From positions 60,240-124,239 of the forward strand of contig CALOCG010000022.1 in NCBI GenBank assembly GCA_942491805.1: a stretch of DNA of 64,000 nucleotides, in the 5' to 3' direction. The stretch comes from Nitrospinota bacterium (GTDB taxonomy: Bacteria > Nitrospinota_A > UBA7883 > JADGGD01). The notes under the pieces are model-generated. The model saw only the letters and a list, made by a program, of their open reading frames with translations. It was not told where the DNA came from and made no database searches. This document shows positions 1,050 through 29,875 of this stretch, piece by piece (positions within the stretch are counted from its first letter, which is position 1; the number at the start of each line of letters is the position of its first letter). A program made the translations under genes and the position numbers.

Positions 1050-2753
1050 TCATTTGATGACACGAAGCACCTCGCGGATCGTCGTGACCCCCTGCAACGC
1101 TTTGACCACGCCGTCTTCGAGCATGGTGCGGAACCCGGCTTCCCGGGCGATCCGTTTCATCTCCGACGGCGATACGTTGCGCAACACGGCGTCGTGGAGG
1201 GAGTCTTCCATCTTCATGATTTCGTAGATTCCCAACCGCCCCCGATACCCGGCGCCGTTGCAGGCTTTGCATCCTTCGCCCCGCCACAGTTTCAAGGGGC
1301 GTCCTTCGGGGGCTTTCACGTTCAGTTCGAGTCCGGACAAGATTTTCTCCGGCGCCTCTTCTTCCACTTTGCACTCGTCGCAGATGCGCCGCACGAGCCG
1401 CTGCCCCACCACGCAGGCGAGCGCCGAAGTGAGCAGATACGGCTCGATCCCCATATCGACCAGACGGGGGACCGCCCCTGCGGCATCGTTGGTGTGAAGG
1501 GTGGAGAAGACCAAATGACCGGTCAGGGCGGCCCGGACGGCCAGCTCGGCGGTTTCGGCGTCTCGAATCTCGCCGACCATGATGACGTCGGGATCTTGCC
1601 GCAACAACGCCCGCAACCCGGAGGCGAACGACATGCCGACGTCGGGGCGGACTTGGGTCTGCCGGATCACCGGAAGCTGATATTCGATCGGGTCTTCCAA
1701 CGTGAAGACGGAACGTTCGGTGGTGTTGACCATCGACAACGCGGCGTAAAGCGTCGACGTTTTACCCGAACCGGTGGGGCCGGTGACGAGGATGATCCCG
1801 TGTGGATGCCCCAACACCTGCGTAAAATTATCTTCGTCTTTCTTGCCGAATCCCAAAGCGGGGAGGGTCAGCGACAGGCTTCCTTTGTCCAACACGCGGA
1901 TAACGAGATTCTCGCCGTGGACCGTCGGCAAGGTCGAGACCCGAAGATCGATACGGCGTAGACCGAGCTGGAAGGTGATGCGCCCGTCTTGCGGAACCCG
2001 TTTCTCGGTGACGTTCAGGTTGGCCATAATCTTCAGCCGAGCCGTCAACGCCGACTGGAGCTGTTTGGGCATCAACACCTGTTGGGTCAGAACGCCATCG
2101 ACCCGCATTCGAATGCGGACGATCTTTTCGTCCGGTTCGACATGGATGTCGGTGGCCCGGTTCTTGACAGCCAGCGCGATGATCTGGTCCATCAACCGGA
2201 TCATCGGCGCCTCTTCGCCCGCGTCCTCCCCCAAGGTCTCGGCGCCCTTGTTGAGAATCTGATCCATCGTCTCTTCGATGGAGCCCGACTGGGCGTAGTG
2301 ATGTTCGATGGCTTCGAGGATCGCCTGTTCCCCGGCGGTGACGACGTCGACCATTTTGCCCGACGCCTGTTCGGCGGCGTCGACGGCGACGACGTTTAAG
2401 GTGTCGACCATGGCGACGGTGAGGGTCGCTCCGTCGAGAGCGAGGGGGATGATCTTATGCTTTTTCGCCAGCTCGTAGGGGATGAGCGAGAGGGCTTCTT
2501 GTTCGATGACGGCGTTCTTGACGTCGACGACTTGCGCTTCGGTCTCTTCGGCCAAGAGCGAGGCGATGACGTCTTGGCTGACGAACCCGAGGTTTTCGAG
2601 GGCGTCGCCGAGATAGATGCCGAGCCGTTTCTGCTCGCGCAAGGCGAGTTCGAGCTGGGCCTTGCTTACCAAGCCGGCGTCGAGAAGACGCTGTCCGAGC
2701 GGCTTTTTCGTTTTTTTCTGGTCACCGGCGATGTTCGCCTCAGCTTCTGCCAT
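1050..2753 (-). CDS. gspE: Type II secretion / type IV pilus assembly ATPase, GspE/PilB family
   Basis: 567 aa. N-terminal GspII_E_N-like region, Walker A GPTGSGKTST, C-terminal tetracysteine CDEC...CKAC zinc motif. Confidence 0.9.
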   Translation of the reverse strand: MAEAEANIAGDQKKTKKPLGQRLLDAGLVSKAQLELALREQKRLGIYLGDALENLGFVSQDVIASLLAEETEAQVVDVKNAVIEQEALSLIPYELAKKHKIIPLALDGATLTVAMVDTLNVVAVDAAEQASGKMVDVVTAGEQAILEAIEHHYAQSGSIEETMDQILNKGAETLGEDAGEEAPMIRLMDQIIALAVKNRATDIHVEPDEKIVRIRMRVDGVLTQQVLMPKQLQSALTARLKIMANLNVTEKRVPQDGRITFQLGLRRIDLRVSTLPTVHGENLVIRVLDKGSLSLTLPALGFGKKDEDNFTQVLGHPHGIILVTGPTGSGKTSTLYAALSMVNTTERSVFTLEDPIEYQLPVIRQTQVRPDVGMSFASGLRALLRQDPDVIMVGEIRDAETAELAVRAALTGHLVFSTLHTNDAAGAVPRLVDMGIEPYLLTSALACVVGQRLVRRICDECKVEEEAPEKILSGLELNVKAPEGRPLKLWRGEGCKACNGAGYRGRLGIYEIMKMEDSLHDAVLRNVSPSEMKRIAREAGFRTMLEDGVVKALQGVTTIREVLRVIK

Positions 2754-2925
2754 GCCCTACTCCGCCACGATATGAAACCGGCGCCGCGATCGACTGACCG
2801 TGCAACCTCATGATTGTACTCGCTCTTTCCGACGCCCGCCACAGACGCCGGGATACGACGAAGGCGGAGACCGTCATCCGATCCCCGCCCGACGTTTCGT
2901 CCACCCGTCGCCGAGTGTTTTGTCC

Positions 2926-3540
2926 CTAGTTACTGGCCAAATAGACCCGCATGACCCCGCCGCCACCGGCGGCGTATTTGACCTTCCCTCTGATGGCGTT
3001 CGTCGCGGTGGCCATACCGGGATCCATGATGGCGTCGAGGGCGTCGAAATCGGCCGCGGCGACACCGGTAAGGGTCAGCCAGACGATCCGTCGCCCGGCG
3101 GCGACGTCGTTGCTGGTGTTGTCGTCGAACGAGATCGAGGTGCAGTTGCCGGCGGCCGCGTTGGCCCCTGCGGCGGCGCAGTTCTCGATACTGGGAACGG
3201 CGCCTATGGAGGTAAGCCCGCTCACCGGCTCGATGTAGGGTCCCTGCCACCGGGCCCACAACCCGAGCACCACACCGCCACTGGTCTCAAGCTGAGTCTG
3301 CCAAGCGGTGTTATTGGCGGCGGCGATGACGCCGTTGGCGTCGAGCGGGTTGAGGGTGCGCAGATCCTTGTACCAGTCGGCGACGCCGGAGGAGAGCCCC
3401 CGAATGTCGCCTGCCATCCGCGTGACGCGGGAATCGCTGATGACTTTAAAAATCTTGGGGGCCACCATGGCGGCCAGAATGGCGATGACGGCCAGAACGC
3501 CGATCATCTCGATGAGGGTGAAACCGCCACGTCGCTTCAT
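2926..3540 (-). CDS. Prepilin-type N-terminal cleavage/methylation domain protein (pilin / pseudopilin)
   Basis: N-terminus MKRRGGFTLIEMIGVLAVIAILAA is the class III signal peptide (G|FTLIEM) followed by a hydrophobic helix. It is the first gene of the pilin-gspE-gspF operon. Confidence 0.85.
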   Translation of the reverse strand: MKRRGGFTLIEMIGVLAVIAILAAMVAPKIFKVISDSRVTRMAGDIRGLSSGVADWYKDLRTLNPLDANGVIAAANNTAWQTQLETSGGVVLGLWARWQGPYIEPVSGLTSIGAVPSIENCAAAGANAAAGNCTSISFDDNTSNDVAAGRRIVWLTLTGVAAADFDALDAIMDPGMATATNAIRGKVKYAAGGGGVMRVYLASN

Positions 3541-7108: not shown

Positions 7109-9799
7109 TTAGCGCTCGCTGGCGCCGTGGCATTTTTTGTATTTTTTGCCCGAGCCGCAAGGGCAGGGGTCGTTGCGCCCCACCTTCTTCTCCGTTCGGC
7201 GGACCGTCCTGTCGACCGGCTCCGGCTCCTCCCCCCCGTGCGAGGCGATCATCCGCCGTTGCGCCTCGGCTTCTTTCTCCCGCTGTTTTCGTTCCAGCTC
7301 CGCCTCGTCCTTCGGCTTCACATGGACGTGCGACAACATCGACACCGAATCGTTTCTGATCCGGTCGATCATCTCCGCAAACAATCCCATCCCCTCCCGT
7401 TTGTACTCCGTCAACGGGTTCTTCTGGGCGAATCCCCTGAGGCCGATCCCCTCTTTCAGGTAATCCATCGAGAGAAGATGATCTTTCCAGTTCGAATCGA
7501 GGACTTCGAGGGTGACGTACTTTTGCACATCCCGCCAGACCTTCTCCCCCATTTCCTCCCGTTTCGCCGCGAAATGAGCCTCGACGGCCTCCCAAATCAT
7601 TTCTTTCAGCGGCTCGAAGGTGACGGTCTCGAAAGGAATCCGTTTCCCCCCGATGGCCATATCTTTATTTTCCGCCAACACGATGGTGACGTTGTAGTTG
7701 TGTTGTACCGCATCAATCAGCCCCGCCAGATCCCACTCTTCCGGGTCGCTTTTCTCCGGGGTGGCATGCTCCATCAGCTCGTCCAGCGACGCCGCCGCCA
7801 TATCGAGCACCAGCTCGTCGAGATCGTCCCCTTTCAGGATCGTCGTCCGCTGGTCGTAGATCACCTCCCGCTGCTTGTTCATCACGTCGTCGTATTCGAG
7901 GAGATGTTTACGCATGTCGAAGTTGTGGGCCTCTACTTTCCGCTGGGCGTTCTCAATCGCGCGGCTGACCAGCCCCGCCTCGATCGGCTCCCCCTCTTCC
8001 ATGCCGAGCCGTTCCATCAACCCTTGGATACGGTCGCCGCCGAAGATGCGCAACAGGTCGTCTTCCAACGAAAGATAGAATCGGGTGGCGCCCGGATCGC
8101 CCTGACGACCGGCGCGCCCCCGGAGCTGGTTGTCGATCCGACGCGACTCGTGCCGTTCGGTGCCGAGGATCAGCAGGCCGCCTGCCGCCAACACCTGCTC
8201 GTGCTCGGCGGCGCACTGTTCCCGCATGGCGTCGAACACCGCTTGGTACTCTTCGTCGTCCTCTTCGAGCTCTTGCTGGCGAACCATCATCTCCGGGTTG
8301 CCGCCGAGGACGATGTCGGTGCCGCGACCGGCCATGTTGGTGGCGATGGTGACGGCGCCCAAACGTCCCGCCTGGCTGACGATCTCCGCCTCTTTCTCGT
8401 GGAACTTGGCGTTGAGCACATGGTGGGGGATGTTCCGCGCTTTCAACAACGCCGAGAGGGCTTCCGATTTTTCGATGGAGATGGTGCCGACCAACGCCGG
8501 TTGCCCCTTGCCGTGGGCTTCGACGATCTCGTCGGCGATGGCGGCATATTTTTCCTTCACCGTCTTGTAGATCAGGTCGGCCCTGTCGTCTCGGATCATC
8601 GGGCGGTTGGTCGGGATGATGAGGACTTCGAGATCGTAGATCTCGGCGAACTCGGCCGCTTCGGTGTCGGCGGTGCCGGTCATGCCGGACAACTTGTCGT
8701 ACATCCGAAAGAAGTTCTGGAAGGTGATGGTGGCGAGGGTCTGGTTTTCGTTTTCGACCTTCACCCCCTCCTTCGCCTCGATGGCCTGATGGATACCGTC
8801 GGACCAGCGACGTCCCGGCATCAGACGCCCGGTGAACTCGTCGACGATGACGATCTTCCCCTCTTTGACCATGTAGTCGACATCTTTTTTGAAAATGACG
8901 TGGGCCTTCATGGCGGCCTGCACATGGTGCAACAGCTCGACGTTGGTCGGGTCGTAGAGGTTCTCGACCCCCAAGGCCTCTTCGGCCACCGCGATCCCCT
9001 CTTCCGTCAGCATGACCGAACGGGCTTTTTCGTCGACGGTGTAATGCTCTTCGATCGTAAGCTTGCGGGGGACCGTCTTCTCGACCTTGTGATACCACTC
9101 GGTGGAACGTTCCGCCGGACCGGAGATGATCAACGGCGTTCGGGCTTCGTCGATCAGGATCGAGTCGACCTCATCGACGATGGCGTAGTGGAGCCGCTGC
9201 ACCTGTTGGGCGGAGGCGAACTTCATGTTGTCGCGCAGATAGTCGAAACCAAGTTCGTTGTTGGTGCAGTAGGTGATGTCGGCGTTGTAGGCTTCGGCCC
9301 GTTCTTCGTCGTTGAGGCCGTGCTGAATGACCCCGACGGTCATGCCGAGGAATCGATACAGGCGCCCCATCCACTCGGCGTCGCGACGGGCGAGGTAGTC
9401 GTTGACGGTGACGACATGCACCCCTTTGCCGGCCAGCGCGTTCAGATAGCAGGGCAGCGTGGCGACGAGGGTCTTTCCCTCACCGGTTCGCATCTCGGCG
9501 ATCCGCCCTTGATGCAGCGCGACGCCGCCGATGAGCTGGACGTCGAAGTGACGCATGCCGAGCGCCCGCTTCCCCCCTTCGCGGCAGACGGCGAAAGCTT
9601 CGTTCAAGAGGTCGTCGACCGTTTCGCCCGCTTCGATCCGCTGGCGAAATTCGACGGTTTTCGCTTGTAACGCTTCGTCGGAAAGGGAAGCGATCCCCTC
9701 TTCGAGCGCGTTGATCGGCTCGACGTATTCTTTGAATATCCGCTTAATGTCCCGCTCGTTGCGGGATCCGAAGACTTTTTTGAGAAGAGTTCCAATCAT
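7109..9799 (-). CDS. secA: Preprotein translocase ATPase SecA
   Basis: 896 aa. DEAD-like motor motifs. C-terminal [14 protein letters not shown] zinc-binding tail. Strongly conserved N-terminus [20 protein letters not shown]. Confidence 0.95.
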
Positions 9800-18780: not shown

Positions 18781-19457
18781 TTACCCGTCGAACCGATAGC
18801 CGACTCCCCGGACCGTCAGGAGCCGAGCCCCCACGGAACCGAGTTTCCGGCGCAAAGCGGTCATATGGACGTCGACGGAGCGGTCGGTGACGGTCATCTC
18901 GCCGCCACGGATGTCGGCGACGATCTGCTGACGAGTCATCACTCCGCCACGCCGACGCAACAGGGCGTCGAGGATGGCGAACTCGGAAAAGGTGAGATCG
19001 AGGGGCGTTCCGTCGAGAATCGCTTCGTGCCGAACCCGGTCGACGACCAGACCGTCGATGGTGACGTTGTCGGCGGCGGCTTCGCCCTGCGCCCGTCGAA
19101 GGATGGTGGCGATCCGGGCGAGGAGGACTTTGCTGGAGAATGGTTTCACCACATAATCGTCGGCGCCGGCCTCCAGCCCCCGGATGATGTCTTCCTCTTC
19201 CCCCTTGGCGGTCAGCATGATAATCGGGGTCTCGGCGGTGGCCCGTTCTTTCCGCAACCGGGCGGCGATCTCCAACCCGGAGAGGCCGGGGAGCATCAGA
19301 TCAAGCAGGATCAGCGACGGGGGGGACGCCAGCGCTTTTTCGAGCCCCACTTCGCCGGTCAAGGCGGTGGCGTAGACGCCGTACCCCGCTTTCACAAGGC
19401 TGTGACGCAACAGCTCGATTGAGGACCCTCTTCGTCTTCGACCACCAGCATGTTCAT
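18781..19457 (-). CDS. phoB: OmpR-family response regulator PhoB-like, with a frameshift a few codons after the start
   Basis: Receiver (LILLDLMLPGLSG, TAKGEEEDI) and winged-helix (LTFSEFAILD, RGVGYRF) domains. The ATG at 19455-19457 gives MNMLVVEDEE, then a one-base slip near 19421-19433 moves into the IELLRHSL frame. The track merged it with nadC as 18781..20106. Confidence 0.8.
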
Positions 19458-19499
19458 CGGGCAGACCTTCAGCGGACCAGACTACGCGCATAGGTGGCG

Positions 19500-20413
19500 A
19501 TCTCCTGACAGAGGAGGCCGACTCCGCGTTAGCTTTCCGTTGGGCGAGGCGGATGGGCGGACAACCCCCTGCTCGGCCCAGTTCTACCTGCAACGAAAGG
19601 TCGGCGGCAGGCGCCGAGTGGGTGAGACTGCCGACCGAAATATAGCCGACCCCCGCTTTGGCGTAACGGGCGACGGTGGTCAGGCTCATGTTCCCGCTCG
19701 CTTCGGTCTCGGCTTTCCCGCCGACGATAGCGACCGCCTTCTTGACCATGGCCGGGGTCATGTTGTCGAGGAGGAGCCGATAGACCCCGGCTACTAAAGC
19801 TTGGCGGACTTCGGCTAAAGTCCTCGGTCTCGACTTCGACGAACCCCGGCTCGCCGACCATGGCGCGCGCCCCTTCCACTGCTTGGGCGATCTTCGGCGG
19901 CGGCGATATGGTCTTCTTGATCGAGATCGCCTCCGACAACCGCGCCGATGGTTCTGCCTTCCGGCGGTGACGGCGTATTTTCTTGGAGATCGCACCAGCG
20001 GGGTGGTCTTCCGGGTGTCGAGAATACCACCTGGTTCCTTTGACCTTCTCCACACGGTGAGGGCAGCGACGCCGGGCGTCGTTGCAGGAAGTTTGGCGGC
20101 GACCAACTGCTGGCTTCATCGACCGGGCTGACCGGTGACGGTGTCAACTTCGTCCCCTTCCTGGACCCGCTCGCCGTCGGCGTGGAGTTCGATCCCGATA
20201 CCCATATCGACCACCCGGAAGGTGGCGGCGAAGAGGGGCAATCCCGCCATCACCGCTTCTTCTTTGGCGGCAGGCAGTGCGACGCACCGACGCCCTCTCG
20301 GTGATGGTGGCGATGGAGGTGATATCCCCCTTCGGGGCGTCTTCCATGAGGGCCGCTTCGAGCGTCGGCGTGAAAGGGCGGGGGTTCAACGGTCGAAAGG
20401 CCCGTGCGGGCAT
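19500..20413 (-). pseudogene. nadC: Nicotinate-nucleotide pyrophosphorylase (quinolinate phosphoribosyltransferase) NadC, with multiple frameshifts
   Basis: NadC segments are recognisable across three frames: MPARAFRPL...GDITSIATITERA, AKEEAVMAGLPLFAATFRVVDMGIGIELHADGERVQEGD, NFLQR, VEKVKGTR, GGILDTRKTTP, DHIAAA, LAEVRQALVAGVYRLLLDNMTPAMVKKAVAIVGGKAETEASGNMSLTTVARYAKAGVGYISVGSLTHSAPAADLSLQVEL. At least five indels. Confidence 0.7.
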
Positions 20414-20492: not shown

Positions 20493-22031
20493 ATGCCAAC
20501 CCGCCGAGATTCGATGAGCAAAACCAACGTCACCTTATGCGTTCCGCCGCAAGGCTATTTCGCCGAGCGATGGAAAGAGTCGTCGATGCCGACCCTCGGC
20601 GTCCTCTCCATGGCCGCCTGTCTCGAAAAAGAGGGGTTCGGCATAACGTCGCTACCGTCACACATCTTGCGGATGACCATAGAGGACATTGTCAAGCATG
20701 TGACCGACCACAAACCGGAAATCTTCGGCGTCACCGTCACCACCGAGAACCGGTTCGACGCTTTCGACGTGGCCCGCGCCGTCAAACGGGCCCGCCCGGA
20801 GACCAACGTCGTCTTGGGCGGCCCCCACTGCACCACCACCGCTCTGGATACGCTGACCCACATCCCGGAGGTCGACATGGTGGTCTCGGGCGAAGGGGAG
20901 GTGACCATCGTCGAACTGGCCCGGGCCGTCGAAGCGGGTGGAGGGTCGGCGGCGTTTGCGAGGATCGACGGGCTCTCGTTCCGCGACGGAGACCGGATCG
21001 TTACCAACGGGTTGCGCGGCAAACTCCCCGACCTGAACGTCCTGCCCCTTCCGGCGCGGCACTTGGAAGATATGGCCGCCTATAACTTCTTCGTCGACGT
21101 GCCGGGGCGAGGGAAACATCCTGCGGCCAACATCATGACGAGCCGTGGTTGCCCGTTCGACTGCAACTTCTGCGCGACCCCGACCAACTGGGGGCGAAAA
21201 GTGCGAGGGGTGTCGCCGGAGCGGGTGTTAGAAGAGATCGAGCATTGCATGGAGCGGTACGGAACCAAGGCGATCTGGTTCTACGACGACACTCTTAACT
21301 ACAATCCCAAACGGCTCGAAACGATCTGCGACATGATGATCGAGCGGAAACTCGATTTGAGCTGGTTCTGCGAAGTGAGGGTCGACGCCCTTGACCGACG
21401 GCTGTTCGACAAGATGGTGCAAGCGGGGCTCTTTCATTTCGGGTTCGGTGTCGAAAGCGCCAACGAACGGGTCTGCCGCGATGTCATCGGCAAAAAGGCG
21501 ACCTTGCAGCAGGCCATCGACGTCATCGACTGGGCCAACGAGATGCAGGTGACCCCCAATCCCTTTTTCATTTTCAGCCACCCGACCGAAACGTGGGAAG
21601 AGGCGATGGAGACCCTCGAATTCGCCGAGAGCCTCCGTGGACGGGCGCAATGCTCCATGGCGATCTTGCACGTCTACCCCTCCACCGAACTGTGGGATCG
21701 AGCCATTGCAGAGAAAAAAATCCCCGCCGATTTCACCTGGACCAACCCCGACGATCCCCGGATCGTCGAGCTCCCCGAAGCGCAAGGGCGCATTCCGCTC
21801 TACATGGATAAACTGACCTGGTTTCAGATTTCGACCATCATCTTCCGGTTCAGCCAGTCTGCCATGAAGGTGAGCCTCTGGAGCAAGGTGACGAAAGCGG
21901 CGAAACGGATCAACAGTTGGCGCCGCTTCGTCCAGTATTTCGTTATGGGGCTGGCGCTGATCAAGCTGAAACTTGCGCGTGGGAAGAAGAAGGGGAACGA
22001 CGACAAGATGGCCAAGCCTGCGGAGTTTTGA
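20493..22031 (+). CDS. B12-binding domain radical SAM protein (class B radical SAM family)
   Basis: N-terminal cobalamin-binding Rossmann region (LGVLSMAACLEKEGF...), then a radical SAM core (SRGCPFDCNFCATP). Start taken at MPTRRDSMSKTNV (GAAGAG RBS). The track ORF 20277.. is over-extended. Confidence 0.8.
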   Translation: MPTRRDSMSKTNVTLCVPPQGYFAERWKESSMPTLGVLSMAACLEKEGFGITSLPSHILRMTIEDIVKHVTDHKPEIFGVTVTTENRFDAFDVARAVKRARPETNVVLGGPHCTTTALDTLTHIPEVDMVVSGEGEVTIVELARAVEAGGGSAAFARIDGLSFRDGDRIVTNGLRGKLPDLNVLPLPARHLEDMAAYNFFVDVPGRGKHPAANIMTSRGCPFDCNFCATPTNWGRKVRGVSPERVLEEIEHCMERYGTKAIWFYDDTLNYNPKRLETICDMMIERKLDLSWFCEVRVDALDRRLFDKMVQAGLFHFGFGVESANERVCRDVIGKKATLQQAIDVIDWANEMQVTPNPFFIFSHPTETWEEAMETLEFAESLRGRAQCSMAILHVYPSTELWDRAIAEKKIPADFTWTNPDDPRIVELPEAQGRIPLYMDKLTWFQISTIIFRFSQSAMKVSLWSKVTKAAKRINSWRRFVQYFVMGLALIKLKLARGKKKGNDDKMAKPAEF

Positions 22032-22056
22032 TTTTCGCTTTCATTTCGCATATAAT
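22028..22056 (+). promoter_or_regulatory. Sigma70-like promoter candidate for the TcmP-like gene
   Basis: TTGATT (22028-22033), 17-nt spacer, TATAAT (22051-22056), about 30 nt before the ATG. GGAG RBS at 22076-22079. The -35 overlaps the stop codon of the upstream radical SAM gene. Confidence 0.45.
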
Positions 22057-22085
22057 TGCCGTACACGTTCTTTCTGGAGCTTGAT

Positions 22086-23183
22086 ATGGCAACGCCAAAA
22101 GATACTCTTTGGCCACTCGATCCGCATACTTTAGCTAAGCATGAGATTCTCAAACGCTACTTGGGTGCATGGTTTCCTATCATCAGCAAGCGCAACAGAA
22201 GGATCGTCTATATCGATGGATTTTCTGGACCAGGGCGCTACCAAGGAGGCGAACTAGGCTCACCAATAATTGCTCTTGAGGTAGCCCGAAATCATCGCAA
22301 ACCAATCGATGGTGAAGTGGTCTTTTGGTTCGTGGAAGGACGTGCAGATCGCCTCGAACACCTACAACAAGAACTTGCTCAGATAGAAGTCCCAGCCCAC
22401 TTCAAGGTCTCTGCCAATCCTGGAAGGTTTGAACAAAAATTTGAGGCGATGCTCGATTCAATCGATGAAAAGGGAAAGTCCTTAGCTCCTGCTTTTGCCT
22501 TTATTGACCCTTTCGGATTTTCAGGGATTCCATTTGAACTAATAGAGAGACTAATGGGATATAAAAGCTGTGAAGCTTTCATTAACTTTGCTGTTGATCC
22601 GATCAACAGATTTCTCGATCATCCCGACGAAGCAATTGTGCAACACATCGTTGAGGCATTTGGGACTGATGAGGTGAGAGCCATTGCGAAGTCGCAAGGG
22701 GACAGAATCTACAAATTACGAGAGCTATACCAGTCTAGACTTAAGAGTGTCGCAAAGTATGTTCGTTACTTCGAAATGCGCGACAAACGAAATCGCGCAC
22801 AATACCTGATGTTTTTTGCCTCTAATGATGAACTAGGACATCTTAAGATGAAAGAGGCTATGTGGCGAGTTGACCCTTATGGCGATTTCAGCTTTTCTGA
22901 TGCCACCGCTCAAGGGCAGAGCGTCCTATTTGGCGCAGAGGAAACTGCCATTCCGCAGTTGGCCGAGACTCTGCGCAAGAGATACACTGGACAGGCCAAT
23001 CTCAAGGTTCTCATTATGAGAAAGTTTGTTGAAAACGAAACCTCCTTCCTTGCCAAACACATGAAAGCGGCCCTTAGGCAGGAAGAGACCGAGAATAGGA
23101 TTATGGTTTCCGAGTTGAAAAGTGATGGCAAAAGGAGACGGAAAGGCTCGTTTCCAGATGAGGTCACGTTAAAGTGGGTATGA
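22086..23183 (+). CDS. tcmP: TcmP-like protein (usual partner of three-Cys-motif / DUF5131 proteins), AT-rich foreign gene
   Basis: 365 aa from [33 protein letters not shown]. Its stop overlaps the start of the DUF5131-like gene by 4 nt (ATGA). Its GC content is far below the flanking DNA. It has methyltransferase-like motifs (see findings). Confidence 0.55.
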
Positions 23184-23893
23184 ACTCGACCATCGAATGG
23201 ACCGAGGCGACGTGGAATCCGGTCACCGGATGCACCAAGACCAGTCCCGGTTGCAAACATTGCTACGCCGAGCGGATGTCGAAACGGCTCCGCGCTATGG
23301 GCCAGCCGAACTATCAGCACGACTTCACCGAGGTCACCACCCACGAACGAATGCTGGAAGCCCCGTTGCGGCTCCGTAAACCGCATACGATCTTCGTCAA
23401 CTCCATGAGCGACCTGTTCCATCGGGACGTGCCGACCGAGTTCATCCATAAGGTCTTCGGCGTGATGGAGAAGGCCGCACGCCACCGCTTTCAGGTACTA
23501 ACGAAGCGTTCCGGGCGGCTAAGAACGTTAAGCTACTCCCTATCATGGAGTGAGAACGTCTGGATGGGAGTCAGCGTGGAAAGCGCCAAATACACTCATC
23601 GAATCGACGACCTTCGCGCTACCGACGCCGCCGTAAAGTTCCTCTCCATCGAACCGCTTCTCGGCCCAATCCCCCATCTCGATCTTCGCGGTATCGACTG
23701 GGTGATCGTGGGGGGCGAATCGGGACCGGGAGCGCGGCCCATGGACCCTGAGTGGGTCATCGACATCAAAGAGCAATGTGTAGATCGTGGCGTCCCCTTT
23801 TTCTTCAAACAGTGGGGTGGCGTGCAAAAGAAACGGGCCGGTCGAATGCTCGAAGGCCGAATCTGGAATCAGATGCCAACTCTCACCCCATAA
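23180..23893 (+). CDS. Three-Cys-motif protein, phage Gp37/Gp68 (DUF5131) family
   Basis: N-terminus [31 protein letters not shown] carries the characteristic C-x6-C-x2-C triad after a WNPxxGC box. Translationally coupled to the upstream partner. Confidence 0.6.
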
Positions 23894-23960
23894 CCACCCC
23901 CGCAGGATCGCGACGCGTGGCTCCGTCCAACAAGCCACTGACAAACGTTATCGAGCCGGT

Positions 23961-23974
23961 CAGGCCTTCGCCTG
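23961..23974. terminator. Short GC hairpin between convergent genes (weak terminator candidate)
   Basis: CAGGC-CTTC-GCCTG, immediately next to the EF-hand gene stop. Confidence 0.3.
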
Positions 23975-24535
23975 TTAGCCGAACCAGTCGCTCGCCCCAT
24001 CCTTCTGCGGCGACTGATACCAAGGGGAGCTGTAGTTCCCGCCGAGGAGCGACATCGCCCCCTCCAACGCCACACTGCGGTAACTTTGCGTCGGCGCCCC
24101 CTGTTGAGCCATTCCCTTTTCCATATGGGTCGCCAACTCACCGGCGTCGATTTCGCCGTCGCGATTGGTATCGGCCACATCGAATCGTTCGGCGCTAAGC
24201 CCCGACTCTTTGGCGGTCATCCCCCCGTTCCGGTCGGTGTCCTTCATCGCCAGCAACGACCGGGCCAAGGCGGAGAGATCGACACTCCCGGCGGAGGCCG
24301 TTTTCCGTCCGGCCTGCTGTCGGGCGATCTCGTCGGCGGTCAGTTTCCCGTCACCGTCGGCGTCGGTCTCTTTGAACCGGGTGGCGCTTATTCCCGCTTC
24401 CCGGCTCGACAAAGTTCCGTCACCGTCGTCGTCGCGCATCTTCACCAGCAACGTCCCCTGCTGGGAGCTGGTCAGACTCCCGTTTCCGGTGGCGCCGAAG
24501 AGAGACGAAAGAGAGGCCGATTCGAACGAGTTCAT
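23975..24535 (-). CDS. EF-hand calcium-binding protein (four EF loops)
   Basis: Start MNSFESASLSSLFG with an AAGGAAAG RBS. Loops DDDGDGTLSSRE, DADGDGKLTADE, DTDRNGGMTAKE, DTNRDGEIDAGE. The track ORF is over-extended at the 5' end. Confidence 0.75.
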   Translation of the reverse strand: MNSFESASLSSLFGATGNGSLTSSQQGTLLVKMRDDDGDGTLSSREAGISATRFKETDADGDGKLTADEIARQQAGRKTASAGSVDLSALARSLLAMKDTDRNGGMTAKESGLSAERFDVADTNRDGEIDAGELATHMEKGMAQQGAPTQSYRSVALEGAMSLLGGNYSSPWYQSPQKDGASDWFG

Positions 24536-24685
24536 GATCTTTCCTTTCAACGGAACAACGCACCCCCTTATCTCGCAACTTTCGAGCCAACAATAAGCGC
24601 TTGATTTACATCTATTTACCTCGTGGCTACCCGATGAAGAAAGGCAACTTTTTCCCCCACCCCCTCTATCTGCTATTCTTCCCCC

Positions 24686-25864
24686 ATGAAACTCCTTTTT
24701 CTCGCCCCCCAACCCTTCTTCGAGACTCGGGGGACGCCGATCAACATCCGGCTGATTCTCCAGTCGTTATCGACCTTGGGGCATACCGTCGATCTTCTCT
24801 GCTACCCCCACGGCGACGACGAGACGATCCCCGGCGTCACCATCCACCGGGTGGTCAATCCGCTCTGCGTCGGCCCGGCGCCGATAGGGCCGTCGGGAAA
24901 AAAAATATGGTTCGACCTGTTCATGTTCCCCCACGCCTTTTGGTTGATGCTGACCGGTCGGTATCAGGCGATCCACGGGGTCGAAGAGGCCGGGTTTATG
25001 GCGTGGCTTTTGGCGAAAATCTTTCGGGTCCCCTACGTCTTCGATATGGACTCCCACATCGCCGACCAACTCGCCTATTCGAAACTGCCGATCCCATCGT
25101 GGGGAATTCGGCTGGTGGAAAAAATGGAGGGCGCCGCTCTGGCCTCCGCGACGCGGGTCTTGACCGTCTGCCAAGCCCTCTCCGACGTGGCGGCCCGCTA
25201 TACGTCGCTCGACAAGATCGTCTTGATCGAAGACATCCCGCAGGAATACCCCGAAGCCCCCGATGGAGTTACCCCGGCGTCGATCCGGGCGGAACTCGGT
25301 CTCCCGACCGACGCCCCGGTGGTTCTCTATACCGGGAATCTGGAATCGTATCAGGGAATCGACTTAGTCATGGAAGCGGCGCCGATGATCGTGGCTGGGG
25401 CGCCCGACGTACGGATCCTCATCGTCGGCGGGGGGGGGGTGTCGTTGGATCGTTATCGCCGTCAGGTCGGAAGGGCCGGGCTTGACGGAAACGTCATTCT
25501 GGCCGGTTCCCGTCCCCTGTCGCATATGCCGGTTCTCTACGAGATGGCCGATATCCTCCTCTCCCCCCGCCTCTCCGGGACCAACACCCCCCTTAAAATC
25601 TACTCCTATTTGGCCACCGGCAAGGCCATCGTCGCCACCGATCTGCCGACCCATACGCAGGTTCTGACCCCCGAGGTGGCGAAACTGGCCCCGCCGGAAA
25701 AGTTGGCTTACGCCAAAGCCGTTCTGTTATTATTGAAAGAGGGAGCGTTGAGGCGCTCTCTCGGAGAAGCGGGACGGGCGTTGGTCGAAGAAAAACATAC
25801 CCGCCGAATTTTCTCCGACAAGATCGACCGGCTTTATCGGTCGGTCGCTGAATCGATTCAATAA
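24686..25864 (+). CDS. Glycosyltransferase family 4 (GT-B fold)
   Basis: 392 aa. N-terminal acceptor-binding half. C-terminal GT1/GT4 signature (VLYTGNLESYQGIDL, E...LLSPRLSGTNTPLKIYSYLATGKAIVATDL). Confidence 0.85.
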   Translation: MKLLFLAPQPFFETRGTPINIRLILQSLSTLGHTVDLLCYPHGDDETIPGVTIHRVVNPLCVGPAPIGPSGKKIWFDLFMFPHAFWLMLTGRYQAIHGVEEAGFMAWLLAKIFRVPYVFDMDSHIADQLAYSKLPIPSWGIRLVEKMEGAALASATRVLTVCQALSDVAARYTSLDKIVLIEDIPQEYPEAPDGVTPASIRAELGLPTDAPVVLYTGNLESYQGIDLVMEAAPMIVAGAPDVRILIVGGGGVSLDRYRRQVGRAGLDGNVILAGSRPLSHMPVLYEMADILLSPRLSGTNTPLKIYSYLATGKAIVATDLPTHTQVLTPEVAKLAPPEKLAYAKAVLLLLKEGALRRSLGEAGRALVEEKHTRRIFSDKIDRLYRSVAESIQ

Positions 25865-25907
25865 GATGGGGGTCGGTCACCGGCCCCCTTTTGTGTGTGG
25901 TAGCTCC

Positions 25908-26987
25908 ATGTCACTGGTCAAACAACTGGCGAATCTGGCCCTCTTCAAAATGGGGGCCGTCCACCCCGTCGCCGGGCCGATGAAGGTGCAGTGGGAGCTG
26001 ACCTACCACTGCAACCTGAAATGCCAACATTGCCAGATCTGGCGGATACCGTTGAGCGAAATCAGGGCCGACACCCTCACCTTCGATCAGCAAAAAGCGA
26101 TCATCGACGACCTTGCCGCCAACGACGTCCGCCACGTATCGTTCTCCGGCGGAGAGATGTTCCTGCAAAAAACCGTCTACGCGTTAATCGCCTACGCCAA
26201 GAGCAAAGGGATGAAAGTCGGCGGCAACTCCAACGCCTTTCTGATCAACGAAGCCATCGCCCAAAAGATCGCCGACAGCGGTCTCGACTTTCTCTATATA
26301 TCGCTCGACGGTGACAACGCCGAGACCCACGACCAGATACGCGGCGTGCCGAAAGCGTTCGAACGAGTCTTCACCGGGGTCAAGAACCTGCGGGCGACCG
26401 CTCCCGCGCTGAAGATCTTTTTCAACACGACGATCAACCGCTTAAACGTCGGCCAACTGGTCGGCGTCGGCGCCCGTGGTCGTGAAGCCGGGGTCGACGG
26501 GTTGACCATCGAGATGACCAACACCTTCGACAAATATTCTCCGGCCGAAGGGCTGACGTTGCTCGACGAACAGATTCCGCTCCTCCACGCGCAGATCAAA
26601 GAGCTGTTCGATAAATATGGCGATCTTCTGCCGCATCAGATGGGCTATTTCGACGAGTTCGAGACCTATCTGAAGAACCGCGACGAGCTTTACAAATACC
26701 GTTGCGTGGCCGGATACACATCGGCCCAGATTCATCCCAACGGCGATCTCTACGCCTGCCCGGTGGCCTTCGAGAAACTGGGTAATCTGGCCGAGACGAA
26801 GTTCGCCGATCTTTGGTACGGCGAGCGGGCCGACAAGGTGCGGACCGATATCAAAGAGGGACGCCACCCGATCTGCTGGATCACCTGCGTCTCTCCGGCC
26901 AACCAATATCTCTCGTATCTCTCGCCGACGAAGTTCCATAAACTGCTGGCGCCCTCGACACTGAAGCATATTGCGCGGAAGCTGTAG
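25908..26987 (+). CDS. Radical SAM / SPASM-domain protein
   Basis: CNLKCQHC radical SAM triad about 25 aa from MSLVKQL. C-terminal Cys-rich SPASM region (YRCVAGY...YACP...CWITCVSP). Confidence 0.8.
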   Translation: MSLVKQLANLALFKMGAVHPVAGPMKVQWELTYHCNLKCQHCQIWRIPLSEIRADTLTFDQQKAIIDDLAANDVRHVSFSGGEMFLQKTVYALIAYAKSKGMKVGGNSNAFLINEAIAQKIADSGLDFLYISLDGDNAETHDQIRGVPKAFERVFTGVKNLRATAPALKIFFNTTINRLNVGQLVGVGARGREAGVDGLTIEMTNTFDKYSPAEGLTLLDEQIPLLHAQIKELFDKYGDLLPHQMGYFDEFETYLKNRDELYKYRCVAGYTSAQIHPNGDLYACPVAFEKLGNLAETKFADLWYGERADKVRTDIKEGRHPICWITCVSPANQYLSYLSPTKFHKLLAPSTLKHIARKL

Positions 26988-27134
26988 ATATGAGGAAAAC
27001 GTCACCGAGTCGGGCGATACAAGCGGGCTTGCGCCTGTCTTTTCTTCCCGTTACCGACAAGAGCCGTCGTCTTCGCCGACTCCCCGTTGGCAAAAGCGTC
27101 ATACCCCCTCTTTCGACGCCGCAGGTAGTTTTCC

Positions 27135-28130
27135 ATGGATAAGTTAACCCACTTCGCCAACCTCGCTTCCATCTACGGTAGCTATCTCAAACGAGAAGAG
27201 GTCGTCAAGAAGCTCCCGACCCGGGTCTGGATCGAGCCGACCCCGGCCTGCAACCTCTCGTGCGGTCATTGCCCCCACGGGCACGATATCCCTTTCGACA
27301 AGGGGCTGATGAAATGGGAGCTTTTCACCAAGATCGTCAACGAGCTGACCGGGTCGGTCTACGACGTGAACCTCTTCCACCGGGGGGAGTCGCTGATCCA
27401 CAAGCGGCTCGCCGACATGGTCGCCTATTGCGCCGACCGGGGGATGCACACCCGTTTGCATACCAACGCTGGACTCATGGACGAGACGTGGAGTAGAAAG
27501 TTGATCGAAGCGGGGCTCGACTACGTTTCGTTCTCTTTCGACGGCTACACCAAAGAGACCTACGAGAAGAACCGGACCGGCGGTTGTTACGAGACGACCA
27601 TCAAGAACATTCAGACCTTCCTTAAGGTTAAACACGAGCTTGGCTCAAAAGTCTTCACCATCTTGCAAGTAATGGAGCTAGGCGAAGAGGCCGAAGGGAA
27701 AGAAGAGCGGAAGAACGCTCTCATGGCCCATTTCGACGGTCTCGGGTTAAGCCGTTTCGTCGTGCGCACCCCCCACAACTGGGCGGGAGATTTCGACGAG
27801 TTCGGACACGGCGTCGGCGACGAGCCGAGTTTCAAGTTCACCCCCTGCACCTTCCTGTGGTACGCCATGACCATCTTCTACGACGGCCGTGTGGCGCCCT
27901 GCCCGCAAGATTTCTACGGCAAGATGATCATGGGGGACGTGTCGAAGCAGAGCGTCGCCGAAGTCTGGAACGGAGAGCCGATGCGTGCGCTTCGTCGCCG
28001 GATGAAAGAGCGCGACGTGGCCGGACTCGCCCCCTGCAACAGCTGCGACATCCTGAACCGGAAAACTTTCATGGGGGTACCGACCAACTATCTGGGCGCC
28101 TTCGTGAAAGACAACCTCCTCCTGAAATGA
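27135..28130 (+). CDS. Radical SAM / SPASM-domain protein (tandem paralog)
   Basis: CNLSCGHC triad. SPASM Cys cluster (CTFLWY...APCPQD...CNSCD). Confidence 0.8.
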   Translation: MDKLTHFANLASIYGSYLKREEVVKKLPTRVWIEPTPACNLSCGHCPHGHDIPFDKGLMKWELFTKIVNELTGSVYDVNLFHRGESLIHKRLADMVAYCADRGMHTRLHTNAGLMDETWSRKLIEAGLDYVSFSFDGYTKETYEKNRTGGCYETTIKNIQTFLKVKHELGSKVFTILQVMELGEEAEGKEERKNALMAHFDGLGLSRFVVRTPHNWAGDFDEFGHGVGDEPSFKFTPCTFLWYAMTIFYDGRVAPCPQDFYGKMIMGDVSKQSVAEVWNGEPMRALRRRMKERDVAGLAPCNSCDILNRKTFMGVPTNYLGAFVKDNLLLK

Positions 28131-29170
28131 GCGGTTGCAAGGGATGCCCCGAACCGGGCGGTATGCCCGACGATCCCCATAAAGGAAAAGGGCGGATCGT
28201 CGTCACCGGCGCCACCGGCTTCGTCGGCAAACGTCTATGTAAAGCGCTGGAGGAGCGGGGTTACACCCTTCGCATCCTCGCCCGCTCCGACAAGGAAGAC
28301 CCGTACTTCCGCTCGCTCAACGCCGAAATCTTGCGGGCCGACGTCACCGACCCCGCGATGGTCGGCGATCTGATGAGCGGCGCCGACGGGGTGGTCCATA
28401 TGGCCGCCGTGGTGGGGGGCGCCGGGATGAGCGACGACCAATTCCGCGAAGTCCATGTGCGAGCGACAGAACGATTACTTGAAGGGGCGGTCCGCGCCGG
28501 AATCAAACGATTCCTCCATGTCTCGACCATCGGCGTGCTCGGCGCCACCGGTCGGACGCCGGTCGACGAGACGGCGCCCTACAACGTGAAAGACATCTAC
28601 CAAATCACCAAAGCCGAAGGGGAGCGAGCGGCCCTCGCCCATGACGGGAACGAAGGGATGCGGGTGACCGTCGTCCGCCCGGCCGCCGTATACGGCCCCG
28701 GCGACCGACGATTGTTGAAACTCTTCCGCTCCGTAGCGAGAGGAACCTTTCGGATGATCGGCGACGGGGAGACGATGATCCACCCGGTCTATGTGGACGA
28801 TCTGGTCGAGGGGATGGCTTTGGCTTTCGAGAGCGAGCGGGCCGGAGGACGCGCCTACATTCTTGGCGGCCCGGAACCGGTCTCGCTCAACCAATGGGTC
28901 GATACCATCGCGGCGAAAGCCGAACAGCCGCTGTCGGCCCTATCGATCCCCTACGCCCCGGTATGGGTCGCCGCCGTTATCTGCGAAGCGCTCTGCGGGG
29001 TTCTGCGGATCGCCCCCCCCCTTTTTCGTCGTCGGGTCGATTTCTTCGTGAAAGACCGGGCTTTCTCCATCGACCGGGCGCGGAACGAATTGGGCTACGC
29101 CCCGAAGGTCGATCTCAACGAAGGGACGGAACGGACGCTGGCTTGGTACAAGGAGGAGGGGCTGCTTTAA
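28128..29170 (+). CDS. NAD-dependent epimerase/dehydratase family protein
   Basis: Start MSGCKGC overlaps the upstream stop (TGAAATG). Rossmann motif VTGATGFVGKRL. A YxxxK-like catalytic region. Confidence 0.8.
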
Positions 29171-29254: not shown

Positions 29255-29875
29255 TCAGGAAGAAGGGCCGCCTTCGTGGCCGCTCATCCCGGCCATGACG
29301 ACATACCGCATGGCGTCTTCCACCGACATCGACAACGGCGTCACTTTCTCTCTCGGCATCATGATCGTATAGCCGCCGATCTGATACGAGAAGGGGATGT
29401 AGACCGCCACCATCCCGTCGAACGGTTCTAATCCTTTCACGTCGCCAAACGACTGGCGGGTGACGAAACCGATGAGGTGATAGTCGGCGGCGAAAGTGAC
29501 CCGGACCACCAGATCGAGCTGTTGCGACCGGGTACCGGCCACGAAACTCATCATGTCTTTCAGTCCGGCGAAGAGCGATTTCACGAACGGAATCCGCCCG
29601 ACGATCCGCTCCATCCATTCGGTAAGGCGACGCATGACCCAGAGATTCATCACCAGCCCGAGGAGGAAAACCAACACCACCCCCGCGGCGATCCCCATGC
29701 CGGGCCAGTAATAGGCCGGCGCCGGGAGAACCATCCGTATCAGCTCCCCCAACCGGCTCTCGGCCCAGACGCTCATCCAGACCACCACCGAAATGGTCAG
29801 CCCCAACGGCAACGCCGTCAGCAACCCGTTGGCGAAAGCGCGCAATAACGGTCTTCGTATCCCTTCTTTCGACAT
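29255..29875 (-). CDS. DUF502-family membrane protein
   Basis: Two N-terminal TM helices and a conserved cytoplasmic domain. 206 aa. Confidence 0.6.
   Translation of the reverse strand: MSKEGIRRPLLRAFANGLLTALPLGLTISVVVWMSVWAESRLGELIRMVLPAPAYYWPGMGIAAGVVLVFLLGLVMNLWVMRRLTEWMERIVGRIPFVKSLFAGLKDMMSFVAGTRSQQLDLVVRVTFAADYHLIGFVTRQSFGDVKGLEPFDGMVAVYIPFSYQIGGYTIMMPREKVTPLSMSVEDAMRYVVMAGMSGHEGGPSS

Follow-up and report, generated by a model that had tools for sequence, protein, structure and literature searches.

A co-conserved radical SAM gene module of Nitrospinota with a probable role in tailoring a cell-envelope sugar

Introduction

Radical S-adenosylmethionine (SAM) enzymes that rework sugars are, to our knowledge, known almost solely from antibiotic pathways, with BtrN, DesII, BlsE, AprD4, and GenK as the examples. 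BtrN (PDB 4M7T) is the 2-deoxy-scyllo-inosamine dehydrogenase of butirosin biosynthesis, BlsE and DesII act on nucleoside- or nucleotide-linked sugars, and AprD4 is the aminoglycoside radical diol dehydratase of the apramycin pathway, where AprD4 and the NAD(P)H reductase AprD3 carry out C3' deoxygenation. We know of no radical SAM step in the Arn or O-antigen pathways. Here we describe a locus in a 64,000-nucleotide stretch of a Nitrospinota genome (contig CALOCG010000022.1, positions 60,240 to 124,239; the whole stretch is hereafter the window) that encodes a family 4 glycosyltransferase (GT4), two radical SAM enzymes that we call rSAM1 and rSAM2, an extended short-chain dehydrogenase/reductase (SDR), and a B12-binding radical SAM enzyme. 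For every protein, the nearest relatives in the databases are from metagenome-assembled genomes (MAGs) of Nitrospinota, a phylum of globally important marine nitrite oxidizers.

The GT4, rSAM1, rSAM2, and SDR genes form the core of a conserved operon, to which the B12-domain enzyme is accessory. Judging from its predicted enzymes and from the genes that surround it elsewhere, we think it probable that this operon tailors the sugar of a cell-envelope glycoconjugate, a surface polysaccharide or a glycolipid, by radical chemistry. An earlier note on this DNA had offered two options for the cluster, a glycosylated product like a ribosomally made and post-translationally modified peptide (RiPP) or an unusual glycan or lipid modification, and the glycan option fits what we find, since orthologous gene sets lie inside Wza/Wzc/Wzx and Wzz/Wzx loci.

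All eight genes of the locus analyzed (20.4-29.2 kb of the window) are intact, without internal stops. The module itself consists of the following features:

20493-22031, + strand: B12-binding class-B radical SAM enzyme, 512 residues (PF02310 9.5e-19, PF04055 4e-26; CPFDCNFC)
24686-25864, + strand: GT4 (GT-B fold) glycosyltransferase, 392 residues (Glycos_transf_1, Glyco_trans_1_4, Glyco_trans_4_4)
25908-26987, + strand: rSAM1, twitch-type radical SAM enzyme, 359 residues (CNLKCQHC)
26988-27134, no strand: spacer between rSAM1 and rSAM2, 147 nt, specific to this genome
27135-28130, + strand: rSAM2, BtrN-like twitch radical SAM enzyme, 331 residues (CNLSCGHC)
28127-29170, + strand: extended SDR (NAD(P)-dependent epimerase/dehydratase/reductase), 347 residues (TGATGFVG, YQITK)

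The core genes are co-stranded, with 43 nt from the GT4 stop to the rSAM1 start, and the ATG of the SDR overlaps the stop of rSAM2 as ATGA; judged by sequence, the SDR is translationally coupled to rSAM2. The earlier note had placed the genes and their motifs correctly, and only the starts of rSAM1, the SDR, and 2 genes outside the module (those for TcmP and an EF-hand protein, described below) needed adjustment. The resulting rSAM1 length agrees with the source's own gene call (P0121).

Two hairpins lie within the operon. One, strong and GC-rich (25868-25898; 9 pairs, 8 of them G-C), is followed by TTTTGTGTGT and sits in the gap that separates the GT4 stop from the start of rSAM1; it might serve as an internal attenuator, or act in processing or stability. 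The number of terminator-like structures around the cluster is at background level. The other hairpin, a small one (27023-27038), is in the spacer. Promoter and terminator scans of the region gave counts at background, and no credible Rfam match to a riboswitch or other RNA was found in 19.5-30 kb.

Co-conservation of the module

Whether the genes belong together can be judged from 80 species-representative genome loci that were picked solely for a homolog of rSAM2 and in which orthologs of the partners were sought at distances of up to 7 kb. A GT4 ortholog was found in 23 of the 80 loci, an SDR ortholog in 32, and an rSAM1 ortholog in 19. The B12 enzyme was found in 13, and in every one of these (13/13) the GT4 was present as well. 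The five cluster genes are thus linked far beyond chance, and the earlier note's proposal of a tailoring unit, together with the co-conservation in other genomes by which it was to be judged, is borne out by the recurrence of the partners near rSAM2 homologs in other genomes and phyla.

Two overlapping sets recur. One, GT4-rSAM1-rSAM2(-SDR), is present in every sampled Nitrospinota locus, whatever the flanking genes, with GT4 orthologs of 47-83% identity directly 5' of the radical SAM pair in this phylum. It is also found in an Armatimonadota locus (L083; GT4, rSAM1, rSAM2, and SDR at 33, 41, 42, and 41% identity) and in an Aerophobetes locus (L173; GT4, rSAM1, and rSAM2 at 39, 44, and 39%), and an SDR ortholog adjoins the pair in Nitrospinota and in L083. 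The other set, B12-GT4-SDR-rSAM2, is contiguous in 3 loci (L051, L054, and L063), while in 5 more (L016, L017, L027, L037, and L041) the same genes lie within a few kb of one another. These 5 loci are from Methylomirabilota, “Proteobacteria”, candidate division B38, and Aminicenantes, and the four genes recur jointly in at least 4 other phylum-level groups; a deltaproteobacterial locus (L078) has the B12 enzyme, GT4, and rSAM2 without the SDR. The window is the union of the 2 sets. In one Nitrospinota MAG whose proteins are 58-76% identical to those of the window (L001), the order is nadC (on the opposite strand), B12, GT4, rSAM1, rSAM2, SDR, with a single unrelated gene for a 235-residue protein between B12 and GT4, and in 2 further loci (L009 and L014) the B12 gene directly abuts that of the GT4.

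Of the module genes, that for the B12 enzyme is the most loosely linked. In several Nitrospinota, other genes lie 5' of the GT4, and in the closest relative the B12 gene is on a separate contig from the module. When linkage was examined from the B12 side in a metagenome scan, which gave true orthologs in about 8 loci, these orthologs were without other module genes except in L099, where an SDR homolog comes after the B12 gene (40% identical). Because B12 orthologs frequently occur without the other module genes, we rank this enzyme as accessory; its membership in the cluster, as the earlier note had it, holds in so far as it recurs with the GT4, but the attachment is loose and the gene is often found alone.

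In all sampled Nitrospinota the module occupies a conserved core-genome position marked by nadC and secA. SecA itself (7109-9799, - strand) lies about 10 kb upstream in the window and on the opposite strand, whereas in other Nitrospinota it comes directly after the SDR (L001) or after the SDR and a DegT gene (L089), and this difference in placement indicates that a local rearrangement separated SecA from the module here. In the window, the SDR is followed by DUF502 (29255-29875, - strand). The nadC gene upstream of the cluster (18781-20413, - strand) is split over 2 frames. In frame -1, the stretch 20365-20261 matches residues 11-40 of a related NadC, and in frame -2, the stretch 20286-19579 matches its residues 37-279; the nadC frame then continues without a stop into a response-regulator open reading frame (ORF) at 18781-20106. 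The split is due to an indel error in assembly, unless the gene is a pseudogene or a fusion.

Genomic context in other phyla

Outside Nitrospinota, the neighbors of the module are informative. In the Armatimonadota locus L083, the four core genes lie between Wza/Wzc and a series comprising a hexapeptide acyltransferase, 2 further GT4s, a polysaccharide deacetylase, a Wzx-type flippase, and a GT2. In the Aerophobetes locus L173, GT4-rSAM1-rSAM2 are preceded by Rml-type SDRs, a dTDP-sugar isomerase, Wzz, and a GT2, and are followed by methyltransferases, an acetyltransferase, a GT2, and Wzx. Homologs of rSAM2 in Actinomycetota (Humimicrobiia), Methylomirabilota, and others are found amid ArnC-like GT2s, NAD-epimerases, hexapeptide acyltransferases, LPG_synthase_TM flippase-like proteins, asparagine-synthase-type amidotransferases (AsnB), and DegT-like aminotransferases, with small EamA-like membrane proteins and TMEM260/PMT_2 GT-C transferases as further neighbors. 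These neighbor sets are parts of polyprenyl-phosphate-based envelope-glycan assembly. The rSAM1 and rSAM2 homologs of other phyla therefore keep the company of Arn-type or Wzx/Wzy-type pathway genes, from which the window differs in that its module has no adjoining flippase, polymerase, or GT-C gene. A Pfam domain scan of the window flanks (about 13.3-35 kb, the remaining window being covered by the ORF listing) revealed no Wzx/Wzy-dependent polysaccharide locus, while genes of that type surround the modules of L083 and L173.

Two twitch-type radical SAM enzymes

Both rSAM1 and rSAM2 match the Pfam SPASM model (PF13186; 3e-9 and 7.3e-15, respectively) after the radical SAM core, and the earlier note had described them as 2 paralogous SPASM enzymes. 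They are paralogs, yet distant ones (24% identity, hhalign E 2.7e-35). They have a conserved N-terminal helix in common, and in the predicted models the radical SAM core begins at about residue 24-30, after this single helix. A full SPASM domain was taken to have 7 to 8 conserved Cys (CX9-15GX4C ... CX2CX5CX3C ... C) and 2 auxiliary clusters. In family alignments (51 sequences for rSAM1 and 53 for rSAM2) each protein has exactly four post-core Cys, and these are invariant: C266, C284, C323, and C327 in rSAM1 and C238, C256, C301, and C304 in rSAM2. The CX2CX5CX3C block of the full domain was not found in either. A truncated SPASM with three or four Cys and a single auxiliary cluster is known as a twitch domain, and BtrN, which belongs to this type, has an auxiliary cluster with four Cys as ligands (PMC9012708). 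This fully Cys-ligated cluster is thought to accept an electron in the two-electron oxidation of an alcohol (PMC9012708). Because only four post-core Cys are present, enough for one auxiliary cluster, rSAM1 and rSAM2 are twitch-type enzymes with one predicted auxiliary cluster each, and a two-cluster SPASM domain, despite the Pfam match, is not what they carry.

Searched against the PDB with its family profile, rSAM2 matches BtrN at 3e-25, with the runner-up at 2e-10, and its four auxiliary Cys align without gaps, one to one, with four Cys of the C-terminal twitch domain of BtrN. The AlphaFold model of rSAM2 (pLDDT 90.7) has BtrN, BlsE, SuiB, and DesII as its top Foldseek matches. The 2 proteins are alike in their core and twitch domains, in their small size, and in having no peptide-binding domain. 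They differ in that rSAM2 is 80 residues longer, with the conserved N-terminal helix and an insertion between core and twitch domain, and in that rSAM2 occurs in envelope-glycan loci of uncultured phyla rather than in an aminoglycoside cluster. An orthologous relationship to BtrN was rejected, given the low identity (about 17%) and flanks without a 2-deoxy-scyllo-inosose synthase or btr-type genes.

The nearest solved folds of rSAM1 (AlphaFold model pLDDT 93.3) are SkfB, a twitch-type sactisynthase, at 7.6e-18 and BlsE at 1.2e-14, with TM scores of 0.67-0.72, and by profile the same 2 lead (SkfB 1e-26, BlsE 8e-23); DesII ranks high in the Foldseek results for both rSAM1 and rSAM2. The SkfB alignment starts past the N-terminal peptide-binding region of SkfB, which rSAM1 lacks. 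The four invariant C-terminal Cys of rSAM1 also follow a pattern of their own (CX17C...CX3C) that sets it apart from BlsE, DesII, and SkfB, and there are no blasticidin or desosamine pathway genes near it. The rSAM2 family is broad and that of rSAM1 rare: of 1.84 billion cluster representatives, only 84 proteins match it at E<=1e-30. Some distant relatives of rSAM1 (P0360, P0366, P0369, P0374, and others) are 700-1900 residues long with two to four separate stretches matching the query, and may represent several radical SAM/twitch modules fused together.

We counted a protein as a member of a named family if it scored at or above the curated NCBIfam cut-off. The scores of rSAM1 are 124 against a cut-off of 500 for AhbD, 101.5 against 265 for MftC, and 66 against 381 for PqqE, and the best model for rSAM2 is W_rSAM_matur, at 88 against 380. 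Across the curated models, including AhbC/D, NirJ, MftC, PqqE, SkfB, the tungsten-cofactor maturase, and HpnH, the scores are two- to six-fold below cut-off, and the listed NCBIfam matches did not include the models for anSME or QhpD. Maturation of heme (AhbC/D, NirJ), pyrroloquinoline quinone, mycofactocin, or the tungsten cofactor was rejected on these scores. The placement in a housekeeping clade for heme or quinone cofactors that the earlier note had raised as damaging to its reading is thus not what we see, and, as far as model scores can tell, the 2 enzymes belong to no named peptide-maturase family either. We are aware of no characterized member of either twitch family.

The B12-domain enzyme, the glycosyltransferase, and the SDR

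The B12-domain enzyme has the N-terminal B12-binding domain (residues 31-142) and CX3CX2C core by which class B is defined, and from this architecture it is a class-B radical SAM enzyme with predicted cobalamin binding. Its best curated model is BchE (156 against a cut-off of 481), with HpnJ (145 against 578), rSAM_ladder_B12 (121 against 360), HpnR (105 against 650), and AprD4 (100 against 500) also below cut-off, and membership in the named class-B subfamilies (BchE, HpnJ, HpnR, PhpK, KedN5, AprD4, BzaD, and ladderane-type) was rejected on this basis. Among solved structures, its family profile matches AprD4 best (4e-30). AprD4/AprD3 and the class-B methylases (TokK, GenK, HpnJ/HpnR, BchE) resemble the enzyme in their two-domain build, with a B12-type Rossmann domain at the N terminus and a radical SAM core, and, as in the AprD4/AprD3 system, the cluster pairs a radical enzyme with an NAD(P) reductase. 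The AprD4 match covers the radical SAM core alone, however, whereas in the window protein Pfam finds a good B12-binding domain, and a further difference from the class-B systems is that the link of the B12 gene to the module is facultative.

The glycosyltransferase has the domains expected of GT4, a retaining family, namely an N-domain of the Glyco_trans_4 type and a Glycos_transf_1 C-domain (PF13579 3.8e-11, PF13439 3e-8, PF00534 1.1e-20, PF13692 8e-19); its best solved relatives, PimA and MshA, are weak matches (1e-12), and it reached no named NCBIfam equivalog. The SDR matches PF01370 Epimerase (1.5e-41) and 3Beta_HSD (3.7e-29) and has the features of the extended type, which we took to be TGxxGxxG, a catalytic YxxxK, and a length of about 330-350 residues. 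Its nearest group is OleD/HpnA/3-beta-HSD, and its best solved match is 3WJ7, an unnamed oxidoreductase. It scores 164 bits against a cut-off of 580 for OleD and 154 against 368 for HpnA, and SdmB is likewise below. Membership in the hopanoid families HpnJ, HpnH, and HpnA was rejected on the curated cut-offs.

A proposed route for sugar tailoring, and its alternatives

If the module does act on an envelope sugar, then the GT4 would take a hexose from a nucleotide sugar and add it to a glycan acceptor that is membrane-bound or still growing, or would instead transfer the finished modified sugar. In a reaction like that of BtrN, rSAM2 would use the 5'-deoxyadenosyl radical to abstract a hydrogen from a ring carbinol carbon and would pass an electron to its single four-Cys auxiliary [4Fe-4S] cluster, yielding a keto-sugar. 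The SDR would reduce this ketone with NAD(P)H, for a net epimerization or one step of a deoxygenation, and rSAM1 could act on the same sugar in a second radical step, such as an epimerization or a BlsE-like decarboxylation. Where the B12 enzyme is present, it might add a C-methyl branch or perform an AprD4-like dehydration. The analysis shows the gene content, the operon structure, the Cys architecture, the structural neighbors, and the co-conservation within polysaccharide loci; we infer this substrate, step order, and product by analogy with the characterized enzymes.

All of the parts come from known enzyme classes, and nothing here is categorically new. The module is fixed in the core genome of Nitrospinota, it recurs in polysaccharide loci of uncultured phyla, and its proteins fall outside named families, which together point to an uncharacterized envelope sugar chemistry. 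We found no description in the literature of such a radical SAM module in polysaccharide loci, and the module probably encodes a new carbohydrate radical chemistry. A more specific proposal, which we put forward tentatively and regard as a possibility short of a likelihood, is that rSAM1 and rSAM2 form an unrecognized two-enzyme radical route that remodels a lipid-linked or GT4-transferred sugar committed to an envelope glycan, giving an undescribed type of sugar. If this were true, the product might be a keto, epimerized, C-branched, or carbocyclic sugar, to which the B12 enzyme, in genomes that have it, would add a further C-methyl, and radical SAM dehydrogenase or epimerase chemistry would be seen for the first time in primary envelope biogenesis instead of an antibiotic pathway, as a conserved trait of these marine nitrite oxidizers. 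The practical value of the locus is that it presents a defined set of four or five genes suited to heterologous expression.

Several observations weigh against a role in envelope sugar tailoring. The identity between BtrN and rSAM2 is about 17%, the peptide-modifying SuiB, SkfB, and CteB are nearly as near in fold, and the best structural match of rSAM1 is a sactisynthase, SkfB. No module protein reaches the curated cut-off of a named family, so function cannot be transferred by homology. Orthologs of the B12 enzyme (44-54% identity; in the metagenome scan and in one 7.3-Mb MAG) often stand alone. In Aminicenantes the rSAM1-rSAM2 pair lies alone among housekeeping genes (gatB, transketolase), and a Planctomycetes rSAM1 is solitary, from which it follows that the pair need not depend on a neighboring glycosyltransferase. 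Finally, neither the window flanks nor the other Nitrospinota have a flippase, polymerase, priming transferase, or nucleotide-sugar gene beside the module.

Among the alternatives, a glycosylated RiPP or other peptide product, in which the radical SAM pair would cross-link or epimerize a precursor that the GT4 then glycosylates, seems to us highly improbable. The Pfam SPASM matches of both enzymes and the presence of SkfB, SuiB, and CteB among the nearest solved relatives of rSAM1 would fit such a product, as would a 50-residue ORF (26990-27142) in the spacer between the 2 genes, the only plausible candidate in a search of the intergenic stretches for ORFs of at least 20 residues. This ORF is not conserved, however; it and the spacer are missing from the closest relatives, the counterpart being about 26 unaligned nt in L003 and an overlap of rSAM1 and rSAM2 in L001, and no other copy of the spacer was found in the window or the fetched loci. 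In other Nitrospinota the module genes overlap or abut (L001, L089, L090), which leaves no room for a precursor gene. Nor is there a Pfam match to PqqD or another RiPP recognition element (RRE) in rSAM1, rSAM2, or their neighbors, the peptide-binding region of SkfB is unmatched, and no protease, transporter, or leader-processing gene lies nearby. With no conserved ORF and no RRE, with the four-Cys twitch form of both enzymes, and with every peptide-maturase NCBIfam model far below cut-off, the peptide option of the earlier note is not supported, and the orthologous modules in glycan loci argue against it as well. For annotation more generally, a Pfam “SPASM” match beside a glycosyltransferase does not imply a RiPP, and the Cys count separates one-cluster twitch enzymes, which often have small-molecule substrates, from two-cluster SPASM maturases.

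The tailoring of a membrane-lipid head group, in which a hopanoid-, polyprenol-, or inositol-lipid-like glycolipid would gain a cyclitol-like or branched head group, is a more serious competitor, though still an unlikely one. Here the lipid would be glycosylated by the GT4 at the surface of the membrane, and its sugar would be reshaped by the radical enzymes and the SDR. There are parallels for such chemistry in HpnI/HpnK/HpnJ, which take part in forming the cyclitol ether of bacteriohopanetetrol, and in the archaeal calditol synthase. The best models of the SDR are lipid-acting (OleD 4e-48, HpnA 5e-45, SdmB 2e-27), the B12 enzyme matches HpnJ at 2.9e-42, the closest solved relatives of the GT4 include the lipid-acting PimA and PimB', the substrate of BtrN is a cyclitol, and the Nitrospinota module is compact and stands alone, with no Wzx/Wzy/Wzz genes beside it. 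Yet the scores of the SDR and B12 enzyme for these lipid models are two- to four-fold below the curated cut-offs, the annotated flanks, to which the search was confined, contain neither a squalene-hopene cyclase nor another hpn gene, and where neighbors elsewhere are informative they are polysaccharide export and assembly genes. We consider it more doubtful still that the locus makes an aminoglycoside- or aminocyclitol-like secondary metabolite, with enzymes acting as in the butirosin and apramycin pathways and the GT4 comparable to BtrM/NeoM. BtrN and AprD4 are indeed the best solved relatives of rSAM2 and the B12 enzyme, and a DegT aminotransferase follows the SDR in L089, but the Foldseek alignments with the aminoglycoside enzymes show very low identity (14-17%), the surroundings lack a 2-deoxy-scyllo-inosose synthase and any resistance or export gene, and the nadC/secA core-genome position in all sampled Nitrospinota is atypical of secondary-metabolite islands.

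Insertions at the B12-GT4 junction

Three genes separate the B12 enzyme from the GT4 in the window:

22086-23183, + strand: TcmP, three-Cys-motif partner protein (TIGR04474, 213 bits against a cut-off of 53)
23174-23893, + strand: DUF5131 / phage Gp37-Gp68 protein (PF07505 6e-103)
23975-24535, - strand: EF-hand calcium-binding protein, 186 residues (Pfam EF-hand_1 4e-12, EF-hand_7; four D-x-D-x-D-G loops)

With these included, the order given by the earlier note becomes B12, TcmP, DUF5131, EF-hand (on the minus strand), GT4, rSAM1, rSAM2, SDR. The note had taken both the TcmP cassette and the EF-hand gene for later insertions, and the 2 cases turn out differently. The window has a GC content of about 60%, and real genes have a GC content at third codon positions (GC3) of roughly 0.75-0.85; the cluster and neighboring genes are at 0.75-0.80, about 0.78, against which TcmP stands out with a GC of 0.46 and a GC3 of 0.45. 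TcmP and DUF5131 are adjacent and co-oriented with a 10-nt overlap, and PADLOC assigns TcmP to PDC-M30A (5e-55) and DUF5131 to PDC-M30B (2.9e-115) and PDC-M41B (2e-119). The cassette is absent from the junction in L001, L009, and L014. Its low GC3, this absence, and the PDC-M30 match agree with a later insertion, and in terms of sequence the pair is a foreign candidate phage-defense cassette outside the module. It resembles PDC-M30 in having both components, A and B, side by side; PDC-M30 is a candidate system without a described mechanism, and the cassette is functionally unconnected to the surrounding operon. A sigma-70-like site (TTGATT-17-TATAAT, 22028-22056) lies just 5' of TcmP, and no convincing direct or inverted repeats flanking the cassette were found in the window. 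The literature on TcmP/DUF5131 yielded passing mentions only.

The contents of the junction after the B12 gene vary among loci:

L009, L014: nothing inserted
Window, 22032-24685: PDC-M30 pair and EF-hand gene
L001, 6624-7703: lysine-rich 235-residue protein with an RNLFIH (HEPN-like) motif
L015, 4965-7931: PIN-like gene and PDC-M41 A/B pair, next to which 68 nt from the 3' end of the B12 gene are duplicated
L092 (closest relative), 1656-3317: AlbA_2/Schlafen-type ATPase

From these predicted contents, the junction looks like a small insertion hotspot for defense-type genes.

The EF-hand gene, whose start is the ATG at 24535 rather than the ORF start at 24712, has a GC3 of 0.78, in keeping with native codon usage, and a 54%-identical copy occupies the same position in the closest relative, L003, and in no other locus. 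It is therefore a lineage-specific resident outside the module and not a recent arrival. Lanmodulin was rejected as an identity for its product (39.8 bits against a cut-off of 135), whose four acidic loops read DDDGDGTLSSRE, DADGDGKLTADE, DTDRNGGMTAKE, and DTNRDGEIDAGE.

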